Assembly (NCBI GenBank): GCA_044226015.1
Contig: JBGAHS010000005.1
Coordinates: 448,001 to 512,000, forward strand
Reading direction: 5' to 3'
DNA length: 64,000 nucleotides
Source of the DNA: Candidatus Obscuribacteraceae bacterium
GTDB taxonomy: Bacteria; Cyanobacteriota; Vampirovibrionia; Obscuribacterales; Obscuribacteraceae
The notes under the pieces are model-generated. The model was not told the origin of the DNA. It was given only the letters and a program-made list of their open reading frames with translations, and made no database searches. Within the stretch, counting starts at the first letter, position 1; the number at the start of each line of letters is the position of its first letter. Below, piece by piece: positions 16,693 through 28,009 of the stretch. The position numbers and the translations under genes were made by a program.

Positions 16693-17898
16693 TTAGCCTA
16701 GTTCATGTTCCATTGCCTTCAAAGCTTCAGCAAGCTCGCCAGCATCAAGCAGATTCAATGCTTCGTTAACAGACTCAACTGCTGCTGCTCCGTCACCACT
16801 GCTATGAGTAGCGTAGACTGGCTGCAATGCAAGTTGGCGGAAGCCAAATGCAATTTCGTCAGAGCTTGCATCGATGAAGTTTACAACTCTCTGTCTCTGG
16901 CGTTTGATAACCATTGCAACATCGACAGCGGTTGAATTCTTCACTGAATCTTTAAGCACATCGACAACCGAGCGACCCTTGAAAATTTGCTCGATCAAAC
17001 TCTTCGCTTTATTTAACTGTTCGCCTTTAAGCGAGTGTGCCAGTTCTTCTGAAGCTAGATTTTGCAGCATTTGTTTGCGGAACACAGGCGATTCGATGTT
17101 GCTTCCCAACTGTTCTCCGAGTCTACCGATGCTGTTCTTGATGTCATCTTTGCTTAAGCGTTGAAAACGAACCTTCAATGTTTCAGCCAGACCATCAAGC
17201 TTCTTGTTCCAGACTGATGCATGTGAAAGTGTCTGTCTGACAAATGGCTTAGAAATTCCATATTGCAAGTCAGCCCAGTAGCTTTCGTTATGCAGCACCA
17301 CTTCAAGAAAATCACGTTGTTTAGCAAGCTTCATTTCTTGACGATGACCGCAGAACTGCGCAATGTCTGAAGCGTGAAGCGGAATACGACTGTACTTCAC
17401 ATCGAGTGGGCGAGCCTTTGCTACAACTTCAGCAATTTTGGAAAGGTCGAAGTTGCCGTTAGCCACACGGAAGATCAATCTGTCTTCCTTCTGGCCAGCA
17501 TGCTTGTCTTGCAAATCCCAGTCGCTTTTTGGAACGAAACCAACTACTGAAGCACTGCGGTCTGGGTTGAATGAGACTGCCAGTGTTCCAACCGGCATAT
17601 ATGAGCTGCCTGCGAGAAATCTGGGAATGCTGACGCGACCATCTTCGCCAAGTACGCGCACATCAATTCTGGCTCCGTTAACCACAATGTCGTTTACATC
17701 GAAGGTGGCAACCAGCCTATCTTCTCTTGAGTAAGCGCTGTCTTCTTCAAGTACGAGATCCAACTCTGGGTCGAGTTCCATTATAGCTTCTTGAGCAATC
17801 TGGCGTGCCATTTCCTGGCGCACATCACAACCCGTGGCTCGGCTTCGCAGCTGCGCAAGTTTTACTATTTCAGCTGTTATTGGTAATCCTTTAGTCAT
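16693..17898 (-). CDS. DUF1822-like protein (putative anti-sigma or sigma partner)
   Basis: 'DVNDIVVNGARIDVR...LAVSF....ASVVGF' resembles the DUF1822 core. Lies directly downstream of a sigma-like gene, as DUF1822 genes do in cyanobacteria. Confidence 0.55.
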   Translation of the reverse strand: MTKGLPITAEIVKLAQLRSRATGCDVRQEMARQIAQEAIMELDPELDLVLEEDSAYSREDRLVATFDVNDIVVNGARIDVRVLGEDGRVSIPRFLAGSSYMPVGTLAVSFNPDRSASVVGFVPKSDWDLQDKHAGQKEDRLIFRVANGNFDLSKIAEVVAKARPLDVKYSRIPLHASDIAQFCGHRQEMKLAKQRDFLEVVLHNESYWADLQYGISKPFVRQTLSHASVWNKKLDGLAETLKVRFQRLSKDDIKNSIGRLGEQLGSNIESPVFRKQMLQNLASEELAHSLKGEQLNKAKSLIEQIFKGRSVVDVLKDSVKNSTAVDVAMVIKRQRQRVVNFIDASSDEIAFGFRQLALQPVYATHSSGDGAAAVESVNEALNLLDAGELAEALKAMEHELG

Positions 17899-17982
17899 TT
17901 TCCGATTCTCCGAGCAGTTTCTTATTGATTTGGTAATCGATCTCTCACTTTCCCTTATCTCTAAACTGGGCAGTGGAGAAAA

Positions 17983-19422
17983 TTAGGTGGAACTGATACC
18001 CAAAAAGAATTTTTGTCTCAAAAGATTCCACTGTGAGCATTCTGGTCCAATTGCTTCTTCCAATTCTGCCCAGGTTACAAACGGACGTACCTTGCAAATT
18101 AGGGAGGCAAGATCGTTGTCAATGCCAGTTGCGAGTATATCTTCTAGGCTGCTCTTGTTTACATCGAGCCGTTTTGCATCTTGGGCTCGGCTCTTAACAA
18201 CAGCTCCTCTCTGAAAAAGGTCTGGAAGTTCTGTCTTGCTAATCAATCCTTTGCTGAGAATTTCGTTCAGGTCTTTGAATGGGCGCTCAGCCACAAGTTT
18301 TTGAGCTTTTTCTTTTGTAAGTCCCAGAATATCCTGCATGTCACGAGCTGTTGCCGTGTTTATCTCAAGCGGAACAAAGGCTGCTGTGGCTCCTTTTCCT
18401 TTGAGTTCGGGAATTCTGTTTGGTTTGACGACTCCGTTGTCGATCAATTCTTCGAGATTGTGAAACTGTCTTCCTTTTATTAGGCGTTCGATTTCACCTT
18501 CAGTCATTCCAAGCTGCTGGGAAAGCTCGCGCCGTGAGGCTGTGTTGACATTTACACCTCGTTGCCAGCATTCAGCAATTCCAGGTAGCTGTTTGTATAT
18601 ACGTTGCCTTACCAGGTCAAGTCCTTTGTCCAACAAAACCTGGCAACGAGCTATTCTTCGAGGCATTGTATCTGCCTGTATGCTCAGGCGCTCACAGACT
18701 TCTCTCATAGTCATCTCTTCGCCTGCGACTGAGCTTTCCGTCAGTCCAAGCCCGAAGATGCAATCTACGACAGTTAAAGCGTCACTTGCTGCACCTGGTT
18801 CGCCAAGCATTTGCTTCAGGTGGATTCTGAGTTGATTCAACTGGCTTACTTGCTCAGAGCTTAAGATCTGATTTTCGGGTGTGATTGCGACATCATCAGC
18901 GACTGTGTTGCGTGGGTCATCTTGCTCGGGGTCGAGATTGCAGTCCTGGAGAGTGTTCTTTTCCCAGTTTGCTTCGACCCTGATGAAGTCAATAACCGCA
19001 TTGTGTACTGTTCGCTGAATGTATGCCGGAAGCAATACTTTGAATCCGTCTTCGCTGTTACCCGCCAAATGTTTTAGGAGAACACCTTCCAGCTTTTGAG
19101 AAATCTCAACCGATAAAGATACGCTCTGGCTTTTTTGCTCATCAGCTGCAACATAGCGTTGACTGAGAAAGCGGCGCAAATTCTGGTTGGAACTTAGCAT
19201 TCGTGCCAGAATTGGCTGGTAATAATTGTCCCGGAGCAGTTTTACAAAGGGTTCTCGGCGATCTTCCAGCTTACTCGCTTTGATGAAAATGGCTTTGGCG
19301 CCTACGCGGGAGAGAAAATCTGCCATGTTGGGGCGACTTCCTGCGTCCCAATTTCGCAGCAAAGATTCCCATTCTGGGGCAAACTGAAAAACTTCTCTTA
19401 ACTCAGTAGAACTTGAGAGCAT
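17983..19422 (-). CDS. Sigma-70-like factor fused to three ComEA-type helix-hairpin-helix repeats
   Basis: Region-2-like 'AYIQRTVHNAVIDFIR'; region-4-like 'IFGLG...EEMTMREVCERLSI'; repeats 'VNVNTASRREL', 'LEINTATARDM', 'LDVNKSSLEDI', each followed by R(P/Q)F....E(L/I). Confidence 0.72.
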   Translation of the reverse strand: MLSSSTELREVFQFAPEWESLLRNWDAGSRPNMADFLSRVGAKAIFIKASKLEDRREPFVKLLRDNYYQPILARMLSSNQNLRRFLSQRYVAADEQKSQSVSLSVEISQKLEGVLLKHLAGNSEDGFKVLLPAYIQRTVHNAVIDFIRVEANWEKNTLQDCNLDPEQDDPRNTVADDVAITPENQILSSEQVSQLNQLRIHLKQMLGEPGAASDALTVVDCIFGLGLTESSVAGEEMTMREVCERLSIQADTMPRRIARCQVLLDKGLDLVRQRIYKQLPGIAECWQRGVNVNTASRRELSQQLGMTEGEIERLIKGRQFHNLEELIDNGVVKPNRIPELKGKGATAAFVPLEINTATARDMQDILGLTKEKAQKLVAERPFKDLNEILSKGLISKTELPDLFQRGAVVKSRAQDAKRLDVNKSSLEDILATGIDNDLASLICKVRPFVTWAELEEAIGPECSQWNLLRQKFFLGISST

Positions 19423-24194: not shown

Positions 24195-24402
24195 AATCCC
24201 TCAAATCTGGCATGGCCAGACTTCTAGTATAAGGCCGTTTGAGCCTATTATGCCTAAGTTACAATCTAAAGTTCTGATTAATGATGCGTAGTCGATCCTT
24301 GAATAGCTCTTCCAGTAATACTTTGCCAGGTTCAGGGTTTTCCCTCTAATACTGGAATCTGGTCTTTTGCATAATTGAATTTAGATTCTGGAGTTTGCGT
24401 AA

Positions 24403-25521
24403 ATGAATAAATGTCGACTCGGCGTGGCGCTGTCCGCGACGATAACTCTTTGTATTTCACTTTCGGTTTCCGCCCAAAATGAGAAGTGGCCAGGAGGGTT
24501 TCCGGGTTCAAAGATGGCAATTGAAACGCCTCTCAAACGAATTATTTCTGGTACTCCAGGTACGTATAATTCGAATATGCGCTCCAAATATGGTGCGGGT
24601 TCACTCACCTCTAATACAGTTTCTTCGAAATTCGGACGAAGCGTCAAAACAGGTTATGTCGCATGGCACAATGATATACAGACGGCTCTCGAAGCATCCA
24701 GGAAGTCTGCAAAACCTCTCCTCGTTTTTCAGATGTTGGGCCGATTAGATCAGGAATTCTGTTGAACGAATGCAAGAATGGCGAGAACCGTGTTGTTCTC
24801 TAATAAAGAACTGGCAAAATACATCAATGAAAATTTCGAACCAGTCTGGCAATCAGTCAGAGAAGTTCCTATCGTAAATATCGACTTTGGCAATGGCAAT
24901 ACTGTAAAAAGAACCATTAATGGGAACGTTGCTACGTTCGTCTGCAAGAGCAATGGTGAGGTTCTTGATGTTCTGCCCGGGCTATACAGTCCGGATTCGT
25001 TCGAAAGCAGGTTAGAACAATTGTCTCTATTAAACAAATACATAGAGCAGTTTCCTACAAAAAACGAGGGAGATCTGCTCGCTGGCTATCACCATATGCA
25101 GTACCAGAGGCTCTTGGCTGGAAAAACAACTACAGAGTTTGCAATGAAAAACAAAGCTGACGGAAATTCCCTTATCGTCTTTACCGACAGAACATCATCA
25201 GAGCTTAAGCGATGGCAAGAACCGATCAGTTCCAAGGAGTCTTATCGAACACTTCCGTTCTCAGATAAGTTGGAAGATTGGTCACAGTTGAATGACGACG
25301 TACGTTATAACGAGACAGTTATGCGAAAGCAAATACATAATCGTTTGGAACAAATGCAGAAAGTGAAAGAGCCAGCAACGGTAGCAGGACTGAGCAAATG
25401 GATTTACCGCGAAGTGCTTCACACCGACATTGATGACCCCTACCTTGGTCTGCAAACGGTACTCGACGGAACCTATCCTTTTGAGAAAATGAATCGGGTC
25501 AAACCGCTTGGTGGCACCTAA
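24403..25521 (+). CDS. Putative selenoprotein (SELENON/SelN-like thioredoxin fold, Cys-Sec motif), 372 aa via read-through of TGA 24763-24765
   Basis: ORFs 24403..24765 and 24778..25521 share a frame and are separated only by TGA: ...GRLDQEFC-U-TNARMARTVLF.... No Shine-Dalgarno before ATG 24778. Hairpin downstream. N-terminal signal peptide. Confidence 0.82.
24783..24800 (+). promoter_or_regulatory. Candidate bacterial SECIS element
   Basis: GAGAAC-CGTGTT-GTTCTC: 6-bp stem; the loop starts 23 nt after the UGA and has G-U at loop positions 2-3. Confidence 0.65.
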
Positions 25522-25535
25522 CTTTTGATGCTGTT

Positions 25536-27830
25536 TTATGCCTGTTCTATTGTTGAGTTCCGATGTCGTTCGATTATTGCATCCTTCTGCTTTTCGACAG
25601 ACAAACCTGTTTTCAATCCGAGAACGAACCATCCCAGTGCTAAAATTCCAATTGCGAAAATGGTGTCGCCGATAACTCGAAGCCATCTCAGAATGTTCAT
25701 CAGATCTGTCTGCAAAAACTCTGCTGAGCGCGCATACCACATGCCGTGTTCGGCGCTTGCCCACGTTTGCAAAAGTCCTACGGGAAGCAAGCTAAGTAGC
25801 ACCATAAGCGAGAGTCCAATATTTATTGACCAGAATGAATAAGCTAACATTTTTGTTTTCCAAACATTCCTGCTTGCCAGACCCTTCAGGCAAAAAAGCA
25901 TTAGACCAATTCCAAGCATGCCATAAACACCAAAAAGCGCTGTGTGTCCATGTACAGCAGTAGTGTTCAAACCTTGCATGTAATAGAGAGCAATAGGGGC
26001 ATTGATCAAAAATCCGAACAAGCCTGCGCCGACAAAATTCCAGAATGCAACAGCAACGAAAAAATAAATCGGCCATTTGTAAGCAGCTACCCAATCTCTG
26101 GCATGACTTAGTGTTAGATTCTCATACCCTTCGAATCCTATTAATACCAGTGGTACTACTTCAAGCGCGCTAAAAGAAGCACCCAGAGCTATTATAGCCA
26201 TCGGGGTTCCTGTGAAATAAAGATGATGGAAAGTACCGATGATGCCTCCTGTCAGGAAAATTATGGTAGAGAATAGAACACTCGATGTTGCTGTACTAAT
26301 CGGTAATATCTTCATTCGCGTGAAAAGAAAAGCAATTACTACAGTCGCAAATACTTCGAAAAAACCTTCAACCCATAAATGCACTACCCACCAGCGCCAG
26401 TATTCTGCTATTGCCAGATTTGTCTGCCTTCCCCACATCAGTCCAGCGCAGTAGAACACCGCAATAGCGAGTGACGAAATAAGAAAAAGACCTAAGAGGT
26501 GGCGATTCTCAGAAGGCGTTTTTATTGCTGGCATGAGTGCCCGGCACATTAAAGTCAACCAGAGGAAAAGCCCTACCGCCAGGAATATTTGCCAGAATCT
26601 TCCAAGATCAACATATTCATATCCCTGGTGCCCTAGCCAGAAGTTCATTTCTAGACCCAGGCGTTGTTGCACAGCTAGCCACTGTCCGGTCATTGAACCT
26701 ATAACAATGATAAGTAAGCAGGCGAATAGAAAGTTCACTCCTGCACGTTGAAACTTTGGCTCGCTTCCAGAAACAGCTGGGGCTATGAACAATCCCGTAG
26801 CCAACCATGTGGTGGCAATCCAAAAAATACCCAGTTGTGTGTGCCAGGTGCGGGTGACTGCATAAGGTAGCCAGTTCGCCAGGGGGATTCCATAAAATCC
26901 TGCACCTTCAACACCATAATGAGCTGTGATGGCGCCTAATCCGACCTGTGCAACCAAAAGCGCTCCTGCAGTCCAAAAATATTTCAGCGTAGCTTTCATT
27001 GATGGAGTCGGTTCAAGCGCCAGCAAGGGGTCTTTCTCAGGGACTTCATTCTCCGCTGCTATGTTATGTCGCTGAGCTGCGAAGTACCATGAAAGCGTGC
27101 CAACACCGGCAAGTAGCAGTACAAAGCTAAGCACCGACCAGACGATGATCTCTCCTGTAGGTTGATTGCCTACGAGTTCTTCAGGTGGCCAATTGTTTGT
27201 GTAAGTCACCAATTTTGATGGACGATTGGTACAACAAGCCCAAGATGTCCAGAAAAAGAAGGCATTGAGTTTTTTCATGCGAGCATCATCTTTGATTGCA
27301 TTAGCTGGAATTGCGTATGCATTTCGCAATTTTTCAAGCTCTGGGGCGTTCCCAAATAACTTCGTGTAATGGGTAAAAACATTTTTGATAGCTTCAGCAC
27401 GACGACTGGAAACGGTTAACACCCTTGATTGAAGATCGAGATTATTCGTGCGTAGCTCGTTCTTAACTCGGGTCTTTATTAGTGCTTGTTGCTCATTGTT
27501 TATTTTGGCAAAGCCGTTAGAAAATTCTGCTTGAGACCAGTCGTTTGCCAACCATTCTGCTTCGCGATGCAGGAAATCAGCCGACCAATCAGGTGCAACA
27601 TATGCTCCGTGTCCCCAAATGGATCCGACTTCTTGTCCACCCATCGATTGCCAGATGTTCTGTCCATCTTTGATGTCTTCTGCTGTAAATAGCAGGCTGC
27701 CATCATCTACTTTAACGAGATTGGGAATCGGCGGAGATTGAGCATAAATTTCGACGCCGTAGTATCCAAGCACGGCGAATGACAACACAATAACTATAAT
27801 GAGACCGGTCCAGAGTTTCTTGTAGCTCAC
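25536..27830 (-). CDS. norB: Quinol-dependent nitric oxide reductase (qNOR)
   Basis: 'GSIWGHGAYVAPDW', 'RTWHTQL', 'WWVVHLWVEGFFEVF', 'GTFHHLYF', 'VHGHTALFGVYG'. Likely GTG start at 27830 with GGAGA RBS (764 aa). Confidence 0.96.
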   Translation of the reverse strand: MSYKKLWTGLIIVIVLSFAVLGYYGVEIYAQSPPIPNLVKVDDGSLLFTAEDIKDGQNIWQSMGGQEVGSIWGHGAYVAPDWSADFLHREAEWLANDWSQAEFSNGFAKINNEQQALIKTRVKNELRTNNLDLQSRVLTVSSRRAEAIKNVFTHYTKLFGNAPELEKLRNAYAIPANAIKDDARMKKLNAFFFWTSWACCTNRPSKLVTYTNNWPPEELVGNQPTGEIIVWSVLSFVLLLAGVGTLSWYFAAQRHNIAAENEVPEKDPLLALEPTPSMKATLKYFWTAGALLVAQVGLGAITAHYGVEGAGFYGIPLANWLPYAVTRTWHTQLGIFWIATTWLATGLFIAPAVSGSEPKFQRAGVNFLFACLLIIVIGSMTGQWLAVQQRLGLEMNFWLGHQGYEYVDLGRFWQIFLAVGLFLWLTLMCRALMPAIKTPSENRHLLGLFLISSLAIAVFYCAGLMWGRQTNLAIAEYWRWWVVHLWVEGFFEVFATVVIAFLFTRMKILPISTATSSVLFSTIIFLTGGIIGTFHHLYFTGTPMAIIALGASFSALEVVPLVLIGFEGYENLTLSHARDWVAAYKWPIYFFVAVAFWNFVGAGLFGFLINAPIALYYMQGLNTTAVHGHTALFGVYGMLGIGLMLFCLKGLASRNVWKTKMLAYSFWSINIGLSLMVLLSLLPVGLLQTWASAEHGMWYARSAEFLQTDLMNILRWLRVIGDTIFAIGILALGWFVLGLKTGLSVEKQKDAIIERHRNSTIEQA

Positions 27831-28009
27831 TTCTCTATCTCCACTAACGCGTTGGTTTGAATTAGCATCTGTAGCTATCTGTGGCAAGTGCAGTGGTCGT
27901 CGATGGCATTCAAGTTTCGCCATCATTAGCAATTTCCAATCTTTTAGCAGTCTGCTGCTTCCTGTTTGCGTATAGATGCATGTGTGGGACGCGTAGCGCA
28001 GATGAGGAT

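Follow-up and report, generated by a model that had tools for sequence, protein, structure and literature searches.

The window, by which we mean the whole 64,000-nucleotide stretch of DNA analysed, holds on its forward strand a reading frame (24403-25521) with exactly one TGA, at codon 121 (U121), directly after Cys120. Calling ORFs under translation table 11 broke this one frame into a 120-aa ORF (24403-24765) and a 247-aa ORF (24778-25521). The original prediction had taken TGT-TGA at 24760-24765 for the only stop between two same-frame ORFs, which the read-through frame bears out, and had noticed the lack of a ribosome-binding site before the ATG at 24778. We found no GGAG within 22 nt upstream of that ATG, as against a GGAG 9 nt before the ATG at 24403. 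Judging from the sequence comparisons below, the apparent stop codon almost certainly encodes selenocysteine (Sec, U) in an exported redox protein. The features of the gene are as follows:

24390-24393, forward strand: Shine-Dalgarno-like GGAG, 9 nt upstream of the ATG (from the sequence)
24403-25521, forward strand: full coding sequence, 372 aa, with the putative selenocysteine at codon 121
24403-24474, forward strand: signal-peptide-like N-terminus, residues 1-24 (basic, hydrophobic, ending in V-S-A; by inspection)
24511-24531, forward strand: K-x-x-I-E-x-P motif in the N-terminal arm (pLDDT under 50)
24652-25047, forward strand: thioredoxin-fold domain, residues 84-215 (pLDDT mostly above 90; VIA-align and profile searches)
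24760-24765, forward strand: Cys120-Sec121 codons, TGT TGA (register test against eight CxxC proteins)
24783-24800, forward strand: bacterial SECIS hairpin with a 6-bp stem, a 6-nt loop and G-U at loop positions 2-3
24859-24927, forward strand: subfamily-specific conserved beta-hairpin insertion, residues 153-175 (conservation and secondary structure of the model)
25048-25518, forward strand: C-terminal region, for the most part helical, in which H230, D299, N303, E304, H312, Y335, D345-P346 and G349 are conserved

The gene is flanked by a divergent NUDIX hydrolase gene and a convergent nitric oxide reductase gene. The latter (NorB/COX1 domains; 25536-27932, reverse strand) has its 3′ end 14 nt from the selenoprotein stop and is not a conserved neighbour. 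The gene neighbourhood showed no conserved neighbours beyond close kin and none pointing to a substrate, and scanning the locus for promoters and terminators gave hits at chance level only.

Public gene callers call the 3′ part as a separate gene, as would be expected if the TGA had arisen by nonsense mutation or misassembly, or if it really ended one gene ahead of another. However, contigs of four runs cover the codon without a variant (three samples from three studies, one of which may be the source of the window DNA), and an independent contig from 2016 differs at only three other places and has the same TGA. The same TGA also recurs across genera and in two phyla, a split would cut a thioredoxin fold, Cys homologs are continuous through the site, and the SECIS hairpin is tied to the TGA. 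We regard this reading, which has hardly any probability left, as already refuted by conservation of the sequence.

Performing a phmmer search of 1.84 billion representatives, we obtained 1,917 clusters (50% identity) at E ≤0.001. Within the best 150 of these 1,917 representatives, 97 start just after the site, as judged from the protein only, and 53 span it; the residue there is Cys in 49 of these and W, S, E or G in the other four. In a search for named relatives, nearly all of the 120 matches listed are confined to the stretch beyond the TGA, and the named hits are all hypothetical proteins, the closest being hypothetical proteins of ‘Candidatus Obscuribacterales’. Searching the ESM Atlas with a natural Cys homolog (P0006) likewise returned hypothetical-protein clusters only, and a single-protein scan of GTDB contigs yielded no relative among 64 stretches.

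At the DNA level, the site codon of the 30 best homolog loci (our own included) is TGA in 28 and TGC in two, a conservation beyond chance. Looking for TAA/TAG or Cys in homologs had been proposed with the original prediction, and the outcome favours the selenoprotein. The TAA of two loci, L034 and L037, was considered as a refutation and rejected, as both have TGC at the site and the TAA is the true protein end. These two loci (genomes G112 and G208) are recent Sec-to-Cys copies that kept the hairpin stem, altered its loop and lost the signal peptide. In the second phylum, Vulcanimicrobiota, TGA stands at the site in seven of seven distinct sequences.

Of 301 genomes of the class, 86 matched the protein family. 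Two weak matches in the class carry both TGA and TAG, and one match in the phylum carries TGA. The genome itself has two paralogs with TGA in the same column, on contigs C6 (197441-197989, reverse strand; L015) and C8 (157295-157735, reverse strand; L047). Both belong to subfamily B, with T-U-S-A-G at the site and a SECIS stem at the same offset; the window gene belongs to subfamily A. Two members, L066 and L152, diverge further: their sites read G-U-M and S-U-M-G, their TGA falls in the same column, and they have long branches and may be further subfamilies. Sampling 351 genomes of the phylum added 17 further matching genomes, and all 12 loci read have TGT and an S-C-A-N-S motif. These Cys-type homologs (L159-L170) have a CxxS site and about 430 aa; they come from other classes of the phylum, and in one family 13 of 38 genomes have them.

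The loop of the SECIS hairpin starts 23 nt after the UGA, and its geometry (spacing, 6-nt loop with G second, 6 bp) fits the model described in passages of PMC13188914. The same passages give an energy criterion of -7.5 kcal/mol; the window hairpin has -7.1 kcal/mol as minimum and -7.7 as ensemble energy, and its homologs range from -5.3 to -15.6. Compared with shuffles over 40 nt, the hairpin is not unusual (z -0.54). Taken alone it is a weak signal; the comparative signal is strong. We counted stem pairs out of six and compared them with synonymous resampling that preserves the protein. The mean was 5.86 against 3.46 resampled in subfamily A (28 sequences), 5.88 against 2.75 in subfamily B (17 sequences), 6.0 against 2.93 in the A-type sequences of Vulcanimicrobiota (seven sequences), and 6.0 against 2.98 in the bacterial SELENON types described below (five sequences). 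The cyanobacterial Cys forms gave 3.0 against 2.88 (12 sequences). In the Sec forms of two phyla the hairpin lies at a constant distance from the UGA, and none of the 12 cyanobacterial Cys forms has it. A stem with an altered loop is retained in the two close Cys forms, and one sequence of subfamily C has only four of the six stem pairs. One stem pair is changed on both sides, being A-U in subfamily A and G-C in subfamily B. By these comparisons, the hairpin is conserved beyond what the protein requires.

Sec usage in this lineage had been implied by the original prediction, and the machinery for it was found in full. In the genome, which is 92% complete, selA, selB and selD exceed their curated cut-offs, and there is a tRNA-Sec gene (selC; Rfam 64.7 bits). 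Elsewhere in it, 17 tRNA genes are densely arrayed over about 2.3 kb (contig C10, 356333-358584). An alternative code, in which UGA is decoded as Trp or another standard residue, has next to no probability: W does stand at the site in one representative, but of the 2,281 frames in the genome that run to 400 codons or more (genes and shadow frames pooled) 600 end in TGA, the sole tRNA with a UCA anticodon is tRNA-Sec (default settings), and homologs carry Cys at the site. The refutation tests set beforehand have thereby all been run, and none refuted the selenoprotein reading.

Among the 301 genomes, selA is present in 78 of 96 from the same family as our genome, in 3/3 and 2/2 of two other families and in 0/199 elsewhere. 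The protein family is present in 82/96, 3/3 (a weak set of matches), 0/2 and 0/199 of the same groups; outside the three families, all 199 genomes lack both. Within the 96 genomes, 72 have both, eight have neither, six have selA only and ten have the protein family only, nine of these ten being <90% complete. These counts include kin, so the genomes are not independent. Most relatives that have any member of the protein family have two to seven matches per genome, and it may be this family that the Sec machinery of the aerobic lineage chiefly serves. The selD and formate-dehydrogenase-like matches of the genome contain no internal stop. Screening the genome by dicodons for selenoproteins picked up none of the three known paralogs and therefore cannot show that other selenoproteins are scarce. 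One further selenoprotein, unannotated, is of the SelW/Rdx type with a C-x-x-U motif (L158, 1230-1577, reverse strand; contig C1 at about 284,000); it scores over the TIGR02174 cut-off, and a hairpin loop begins 21 nt after its UGA.

Turning to the protein, hydropathy scanning showed a hydrophobic N-terminus in all 28 Sec forms and in neither of the two close Cys forms, and we infer that the protein is probably exported and works outside the cytoplasm. The K-x-x-I-E-x-P motif occurs in 22 of the 30 loci (N-terminal, C-terminal or repeated), in 60 of the 150 representatives and in none of 120 SELENON sequences; within subfamily A it recurs once or more. A structure model built from an 86-row alignment had a pLDDT of 78.9. 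Its best VIA-align match was 3f9u (Z 11.1, rmsd 2.2, 107 residues), followed by 3ph9 (Z 9.7), 2ju5 (Z 9.2) and 2dlx (Z 8.6), and the nearest folds of the model are DsbD-gamma, DsbH, DUF255, AGR and UAS domains.

An ungapped register test against eight CxxC proteins of the genome was positive only with U placed at the first Cys, in 8/8 groups. By this alignment U121 is at the attacking-Cys position of CxxC, in agreement with the predicted placement of the UGA at the redox position of a thioredoxin-like fold. The site therefore reads U-x-x-A, with Cys120 at the Trp position of thioredoxin and Ala124 replacing the second Cys. In the alignment, the cis-Pro position appears to be Asn in the subfamily of the window protein. 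Subfamily B has T-U at the site, and a large Cys clade has CxxS. As the vicinal Cys is missing from subfamily B and from the S-C-A-N-S clade, it is not required family-wide.

The window protein shares its fold with the Thioredoxin_7/DsbD-gamma/DsbH, AGR and UAS proteins. Unlike the first of these groups it lacks CxxC, and it reaches only 15.1 bits there, within a Pfam range of 15-17 bits, against a cut-off of 27 bits. The NF041383 family (VPGUxxT selenoprotein), like other catalogued bacterial selenoproteins of the thioredoxin fold, also has Sec at the N-terminus of helix 2, and it gave a weak profile match (E 0.008); however, the window protein scores 15.8 bits against a cut-off of 275 and has no VPGU motif, and three of the 86 members match this family weakly. 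No Pfam or NCBIfam family exceeded its cut-off for the window protein, the 86 alignment members, the two paralogs or the bacterial SELENON types. Searches of PDB sequences gave no meaningful match, and the family profile found none there.

The original prediction had also proposed a bacterial relative of SELENON, drawing on an approximate active-site motif of that protein. This motif matches the retrieved starfish SELENON (P0157), and the kinship held for the C-terminal thioredoxin domain, by profiles and tree, and failed for the rest: the window protein has no SCUG, EF-hand or central domain and thus is not a SELENON ortholog. On these comparisons it is a distant domain-level relative and not a SELENON member. 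BLAST of the window protein against P0157 gave one 58-residue alignment with 28% identity. A family domain profile of 100 rows, from which SELENON was excluded, hit the best animal SELENON at E 1.6e-10 and found 109 of 120 listed SELENON at E ≤10, 64 of the 120 being under 1e-3. The best unrelated segment for this profile among 120,300 genome segments had E 0.013. That segment (contig C11, about 173,700-174,100, reverse strand) encodes an exported protein that begins in a thioredoxin-like manner; it may be a remote member of the family. With the narrower profile A1, 11 of the 120 listed SELENON had E below 1e-3. The opposite search, with a SELENON-domain profile built from 88 of the 120 (the Sec codon having been dropped in many by gene models), ranked the two paralogs at the top of the genome (E 4.5e-5 and 0.26, the second level with an unrelated segment at 0.27) and missed the window protein (7.1 bits), of the three paralogs the one most distant from SELENON. 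Aligning family and SELENON by hhalign gave 83% probability and E 8.6e-6 over 74 columns (residues 89-162).

We also built a tree of 57 rows and 143 columns, with an outgroup from one genome and two subfamily C rows omitted as long branches. It separates the family together with SELENON from eight ordinary thioredoxins at a support of 98/98. Animal and near full-length bacterial SELENON form a 100/99 clade, with the window protein outside. Subfamily B joins the SELENON clade at 95/95, subject to a long-branch warning, and subfamily A, that of the window protein, is left without a resolved place.

The near full-length bacterial SELENON relatives came to light by scanning GTDB for a degenerate SCUG pattern, which gave 44 loci, 42 of them chance and two real (L105 and L102). 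L105 is a gene of a Vulcanimicrobiota MAG; L102 is labelled Burkholderiales but appears in a Vulcanimicrobiota sample. In all, 4 of 201 Vulcanimicrobiota genomes hold such relatives, as five genes:

L105, 2179-3372, reverse strand: near full-length bacterial SELENON relative (G301)
L102, 1-828, forward strand: near full-length bacterial SELENON relative (G302)
L140, L144 and L145: near full-length bacterial SELENON relatives (G368 and G390)

G368 has two of them in tandem. The L105 protein matches starfish SELENON at E 3.9e-25 with 83% cover; a search with the starfish protein itself returned 402 proteins, and most of the 120 listed are named selenoprotein N. Both the L105 and the L102 genomes contain selB. 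L105 and L102 adjoin genes that resemble pilin or pseudopilin genes by inspection. These bacterial relatives share with the window gene the domain and the in-frame TGA, and their SECIS stem lies at the same offset as in subfamily B. They differ from it in having S-C-U-G, the SELENON central domain, a mostly lipoprotein-like N-terminus and another SECIS loop.

Animal SELENON and the window protein have in common the G-x-L-D loop (a four-residue insertion), the Cys-Sec dyad and Arg at U+4 and U+7. The catalytic site of SELENON lies outside the cytoplasm, as it presumably does in the window protein, and both genes have a coding-region hairpin centred about 26 nt after the UGA. Passages of PMC12839072 list SCUG, Sec462 and Arg466 as SELENON features and make no mention of bacteria. 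In contrast to SCUG, the window protein reads F-C-U-T. Its N-terminus looks like a cleavable signal (inspection and hydropathy) where SELENON has a type II anchor, and it has its own beta-hairpin and C-terminal helical region. The window protein gave no EF-hand match; starfish SELENON gave weak sub-cut-off ones (E 5.5e-5). The central domain was not found, the alignment being restricted to the 58 residues.

We consider it very likely, from these profiles and the tree, that the thioredoxin domain shares ancestry with the catalytic domain of SELENON. Could the likeness instead come from the thioredoxin fold and a convergent Cys-Sec pair, with no special common ancestry? The 28% identity extends over 58 residues only, the SELENON profile misses the window protein itself, and the tree has long-branch warnings, few columns and a one-genome outgroup. 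Nevertheless, no ordinary thioredoxin-like segment of the genome comes near the score of SELENON, the four-residue G-x-L-D insertion and both Arg residues are common to the two, and the near full-length bacterial relatives share the SECIS stem at the subfamily B offset. Convergence of this kind is therefore improbable, and shared ancestry of the domain is the reading that we keep.

As to the common position of the hairpins, scanning metagenomes yielded 30 loci, of which 29 have animal-like sequences and one is bacterial. Two of the animal-like loci (L120 and L132) have a SELENON exon with an apparent intron from about 31 nt after the TGA, in the region of the selenocysteine redefinition element (SRE). 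In 21 distinct animal-like sequences, with these two loci omitted for the apparent intron inside the hairpin, the SRE pairs best in the bacterial stem register (4.19 of 6 pairs against 3.07 resampled). At least five pairs form in 11 of the 21, and neighbouring registers give 3.4-3.5. It is the upper stem of the SRE that shares this register with the bacterial stem, and the codons involved are homologous. Unlike the bacterial SECIS, the animal SRE is longer and has no conserved loop. Passages of PMC8704476 state that stem, loop and spacer of the SELENON SRE matter, and a derivation of SREs from bacterial SECIS is speculated upon in part of PMC4561486; the matching position makes the speculation, as worded in that part, directly testable. 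We tentatively suggest, at somewhat less than even chances, that animal SELENON came from the bacterial selenoprotein superfamily, of which the window gene is a domain-only member, and kept the in-frame SECIS as its disease-relevant SRE. If true, the change of a bacterial SECIS into a eukaryotic recoding element would here be traced at gene level for the first time. Convergence set by ribosome geometry may instead account for the register match.

Taken as a whole, the evidence makes it probable that the gene encodes an exported, SECIS-dependent selenoprotein that is kin to the SELENON domain and likely acts as a periplasmic thiol/disulfide reductase. SelB bound to the hairpin at 24783-24800 would, with near certainty as far as the sequence tells, deliver Sec-tRNA to UGA121. 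The signal peptide would then be cleaved, and the protein would act outside the cytoplasm. Sec121, at the start of helix 2, would be the attacking nucleophile on a substrate disulfide. As a second CxxC cysteine is lacking, resolution of the mixed bond most likely falls to the adjacent Cys120, through a vicinal selenylsulfide, by analogy with SEPN1 C427/U428, for which passages of PMC7474598 propose such a bond and treat U428 as the attacking residue. Re-reduction may come from a DsbD-type system; DsbD-gamma-like CxxC domains, identified by resemblance, are present in the genome. By the same analogy the window protein may be likened in action to the SELENON catalytic domain. That it reduces specific envelope proteins in the periplasm, choosing its substrates by the beta-hairpin and the C-terminal helical region, is the role that we favour by a small lead over its negation.

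A real selenoprotein could also use its Cys-Sec dyad mainly to reduce peroxide or to bind metals or metalloids. The missing resolving cysteine of CxxC, the apparent Asn at the cis-Pro position and the conserved His/Asp/Glu residues of the C-terminal region would suit such an activity, and passages of PMC13188914 link several catalogued CU-motif selenoproteins to metals. On the other hand, the nearest folds are of the DsbD-gamma, DsbH and AGR/UAS types and not peroxiredoxin or GPx, metal-resistance genes do not recur as neighbours, and the homolog SEPN1 traps protein substrates via residue 428, according to passages of PMC7474598. We hold the peroxide or metal activity to be unlikely, at about one chance in four, and keep the thiol/disulfide reductase as the working role.

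A Poribacteria SelenoN ortholog is reportedly described in a doctoral thesis, so that the occurrence of SELENON in bacteria is in itself probably not an entirely new finding. In our literature searches, with the BSepDB family tables outside their scope, we met no account of SELENON relatives from bacteria or of selenoproteins from this lineage, and the part of PMC13188914 (2026) that tabulates 119 prokaryotic selenoprotein families has no SELENON-like entry. The 1,917 clusters, their hypothetical-protein names and the lack of an entry among the 119 families together suggest that annotation is cutting a large selenoprotein family in two. As far as comparative evidence goes, the bacterial selenoprotein encoded here is real and uncatalogued, and its kinship to SELENON has been tested at the level of the domain. 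In humans SELENON is a myopathy gene; the substrate chemistry of its product is unclear, and as of 2020 it had no solved structure according to passages of PMC7474598. Soluble bacterial homologs, natural Cys versions included, would be tractable models for its catalytic domain.

Elsewhere in the window (16693-19422, reverse strand), the DNA encodes a 401-aa unknown protein and a 479-aa protein; in the latter a sigma-factor-like region is apparently fused to ComEA-like helix-hairpin-helix repeats, as seen by inspection.
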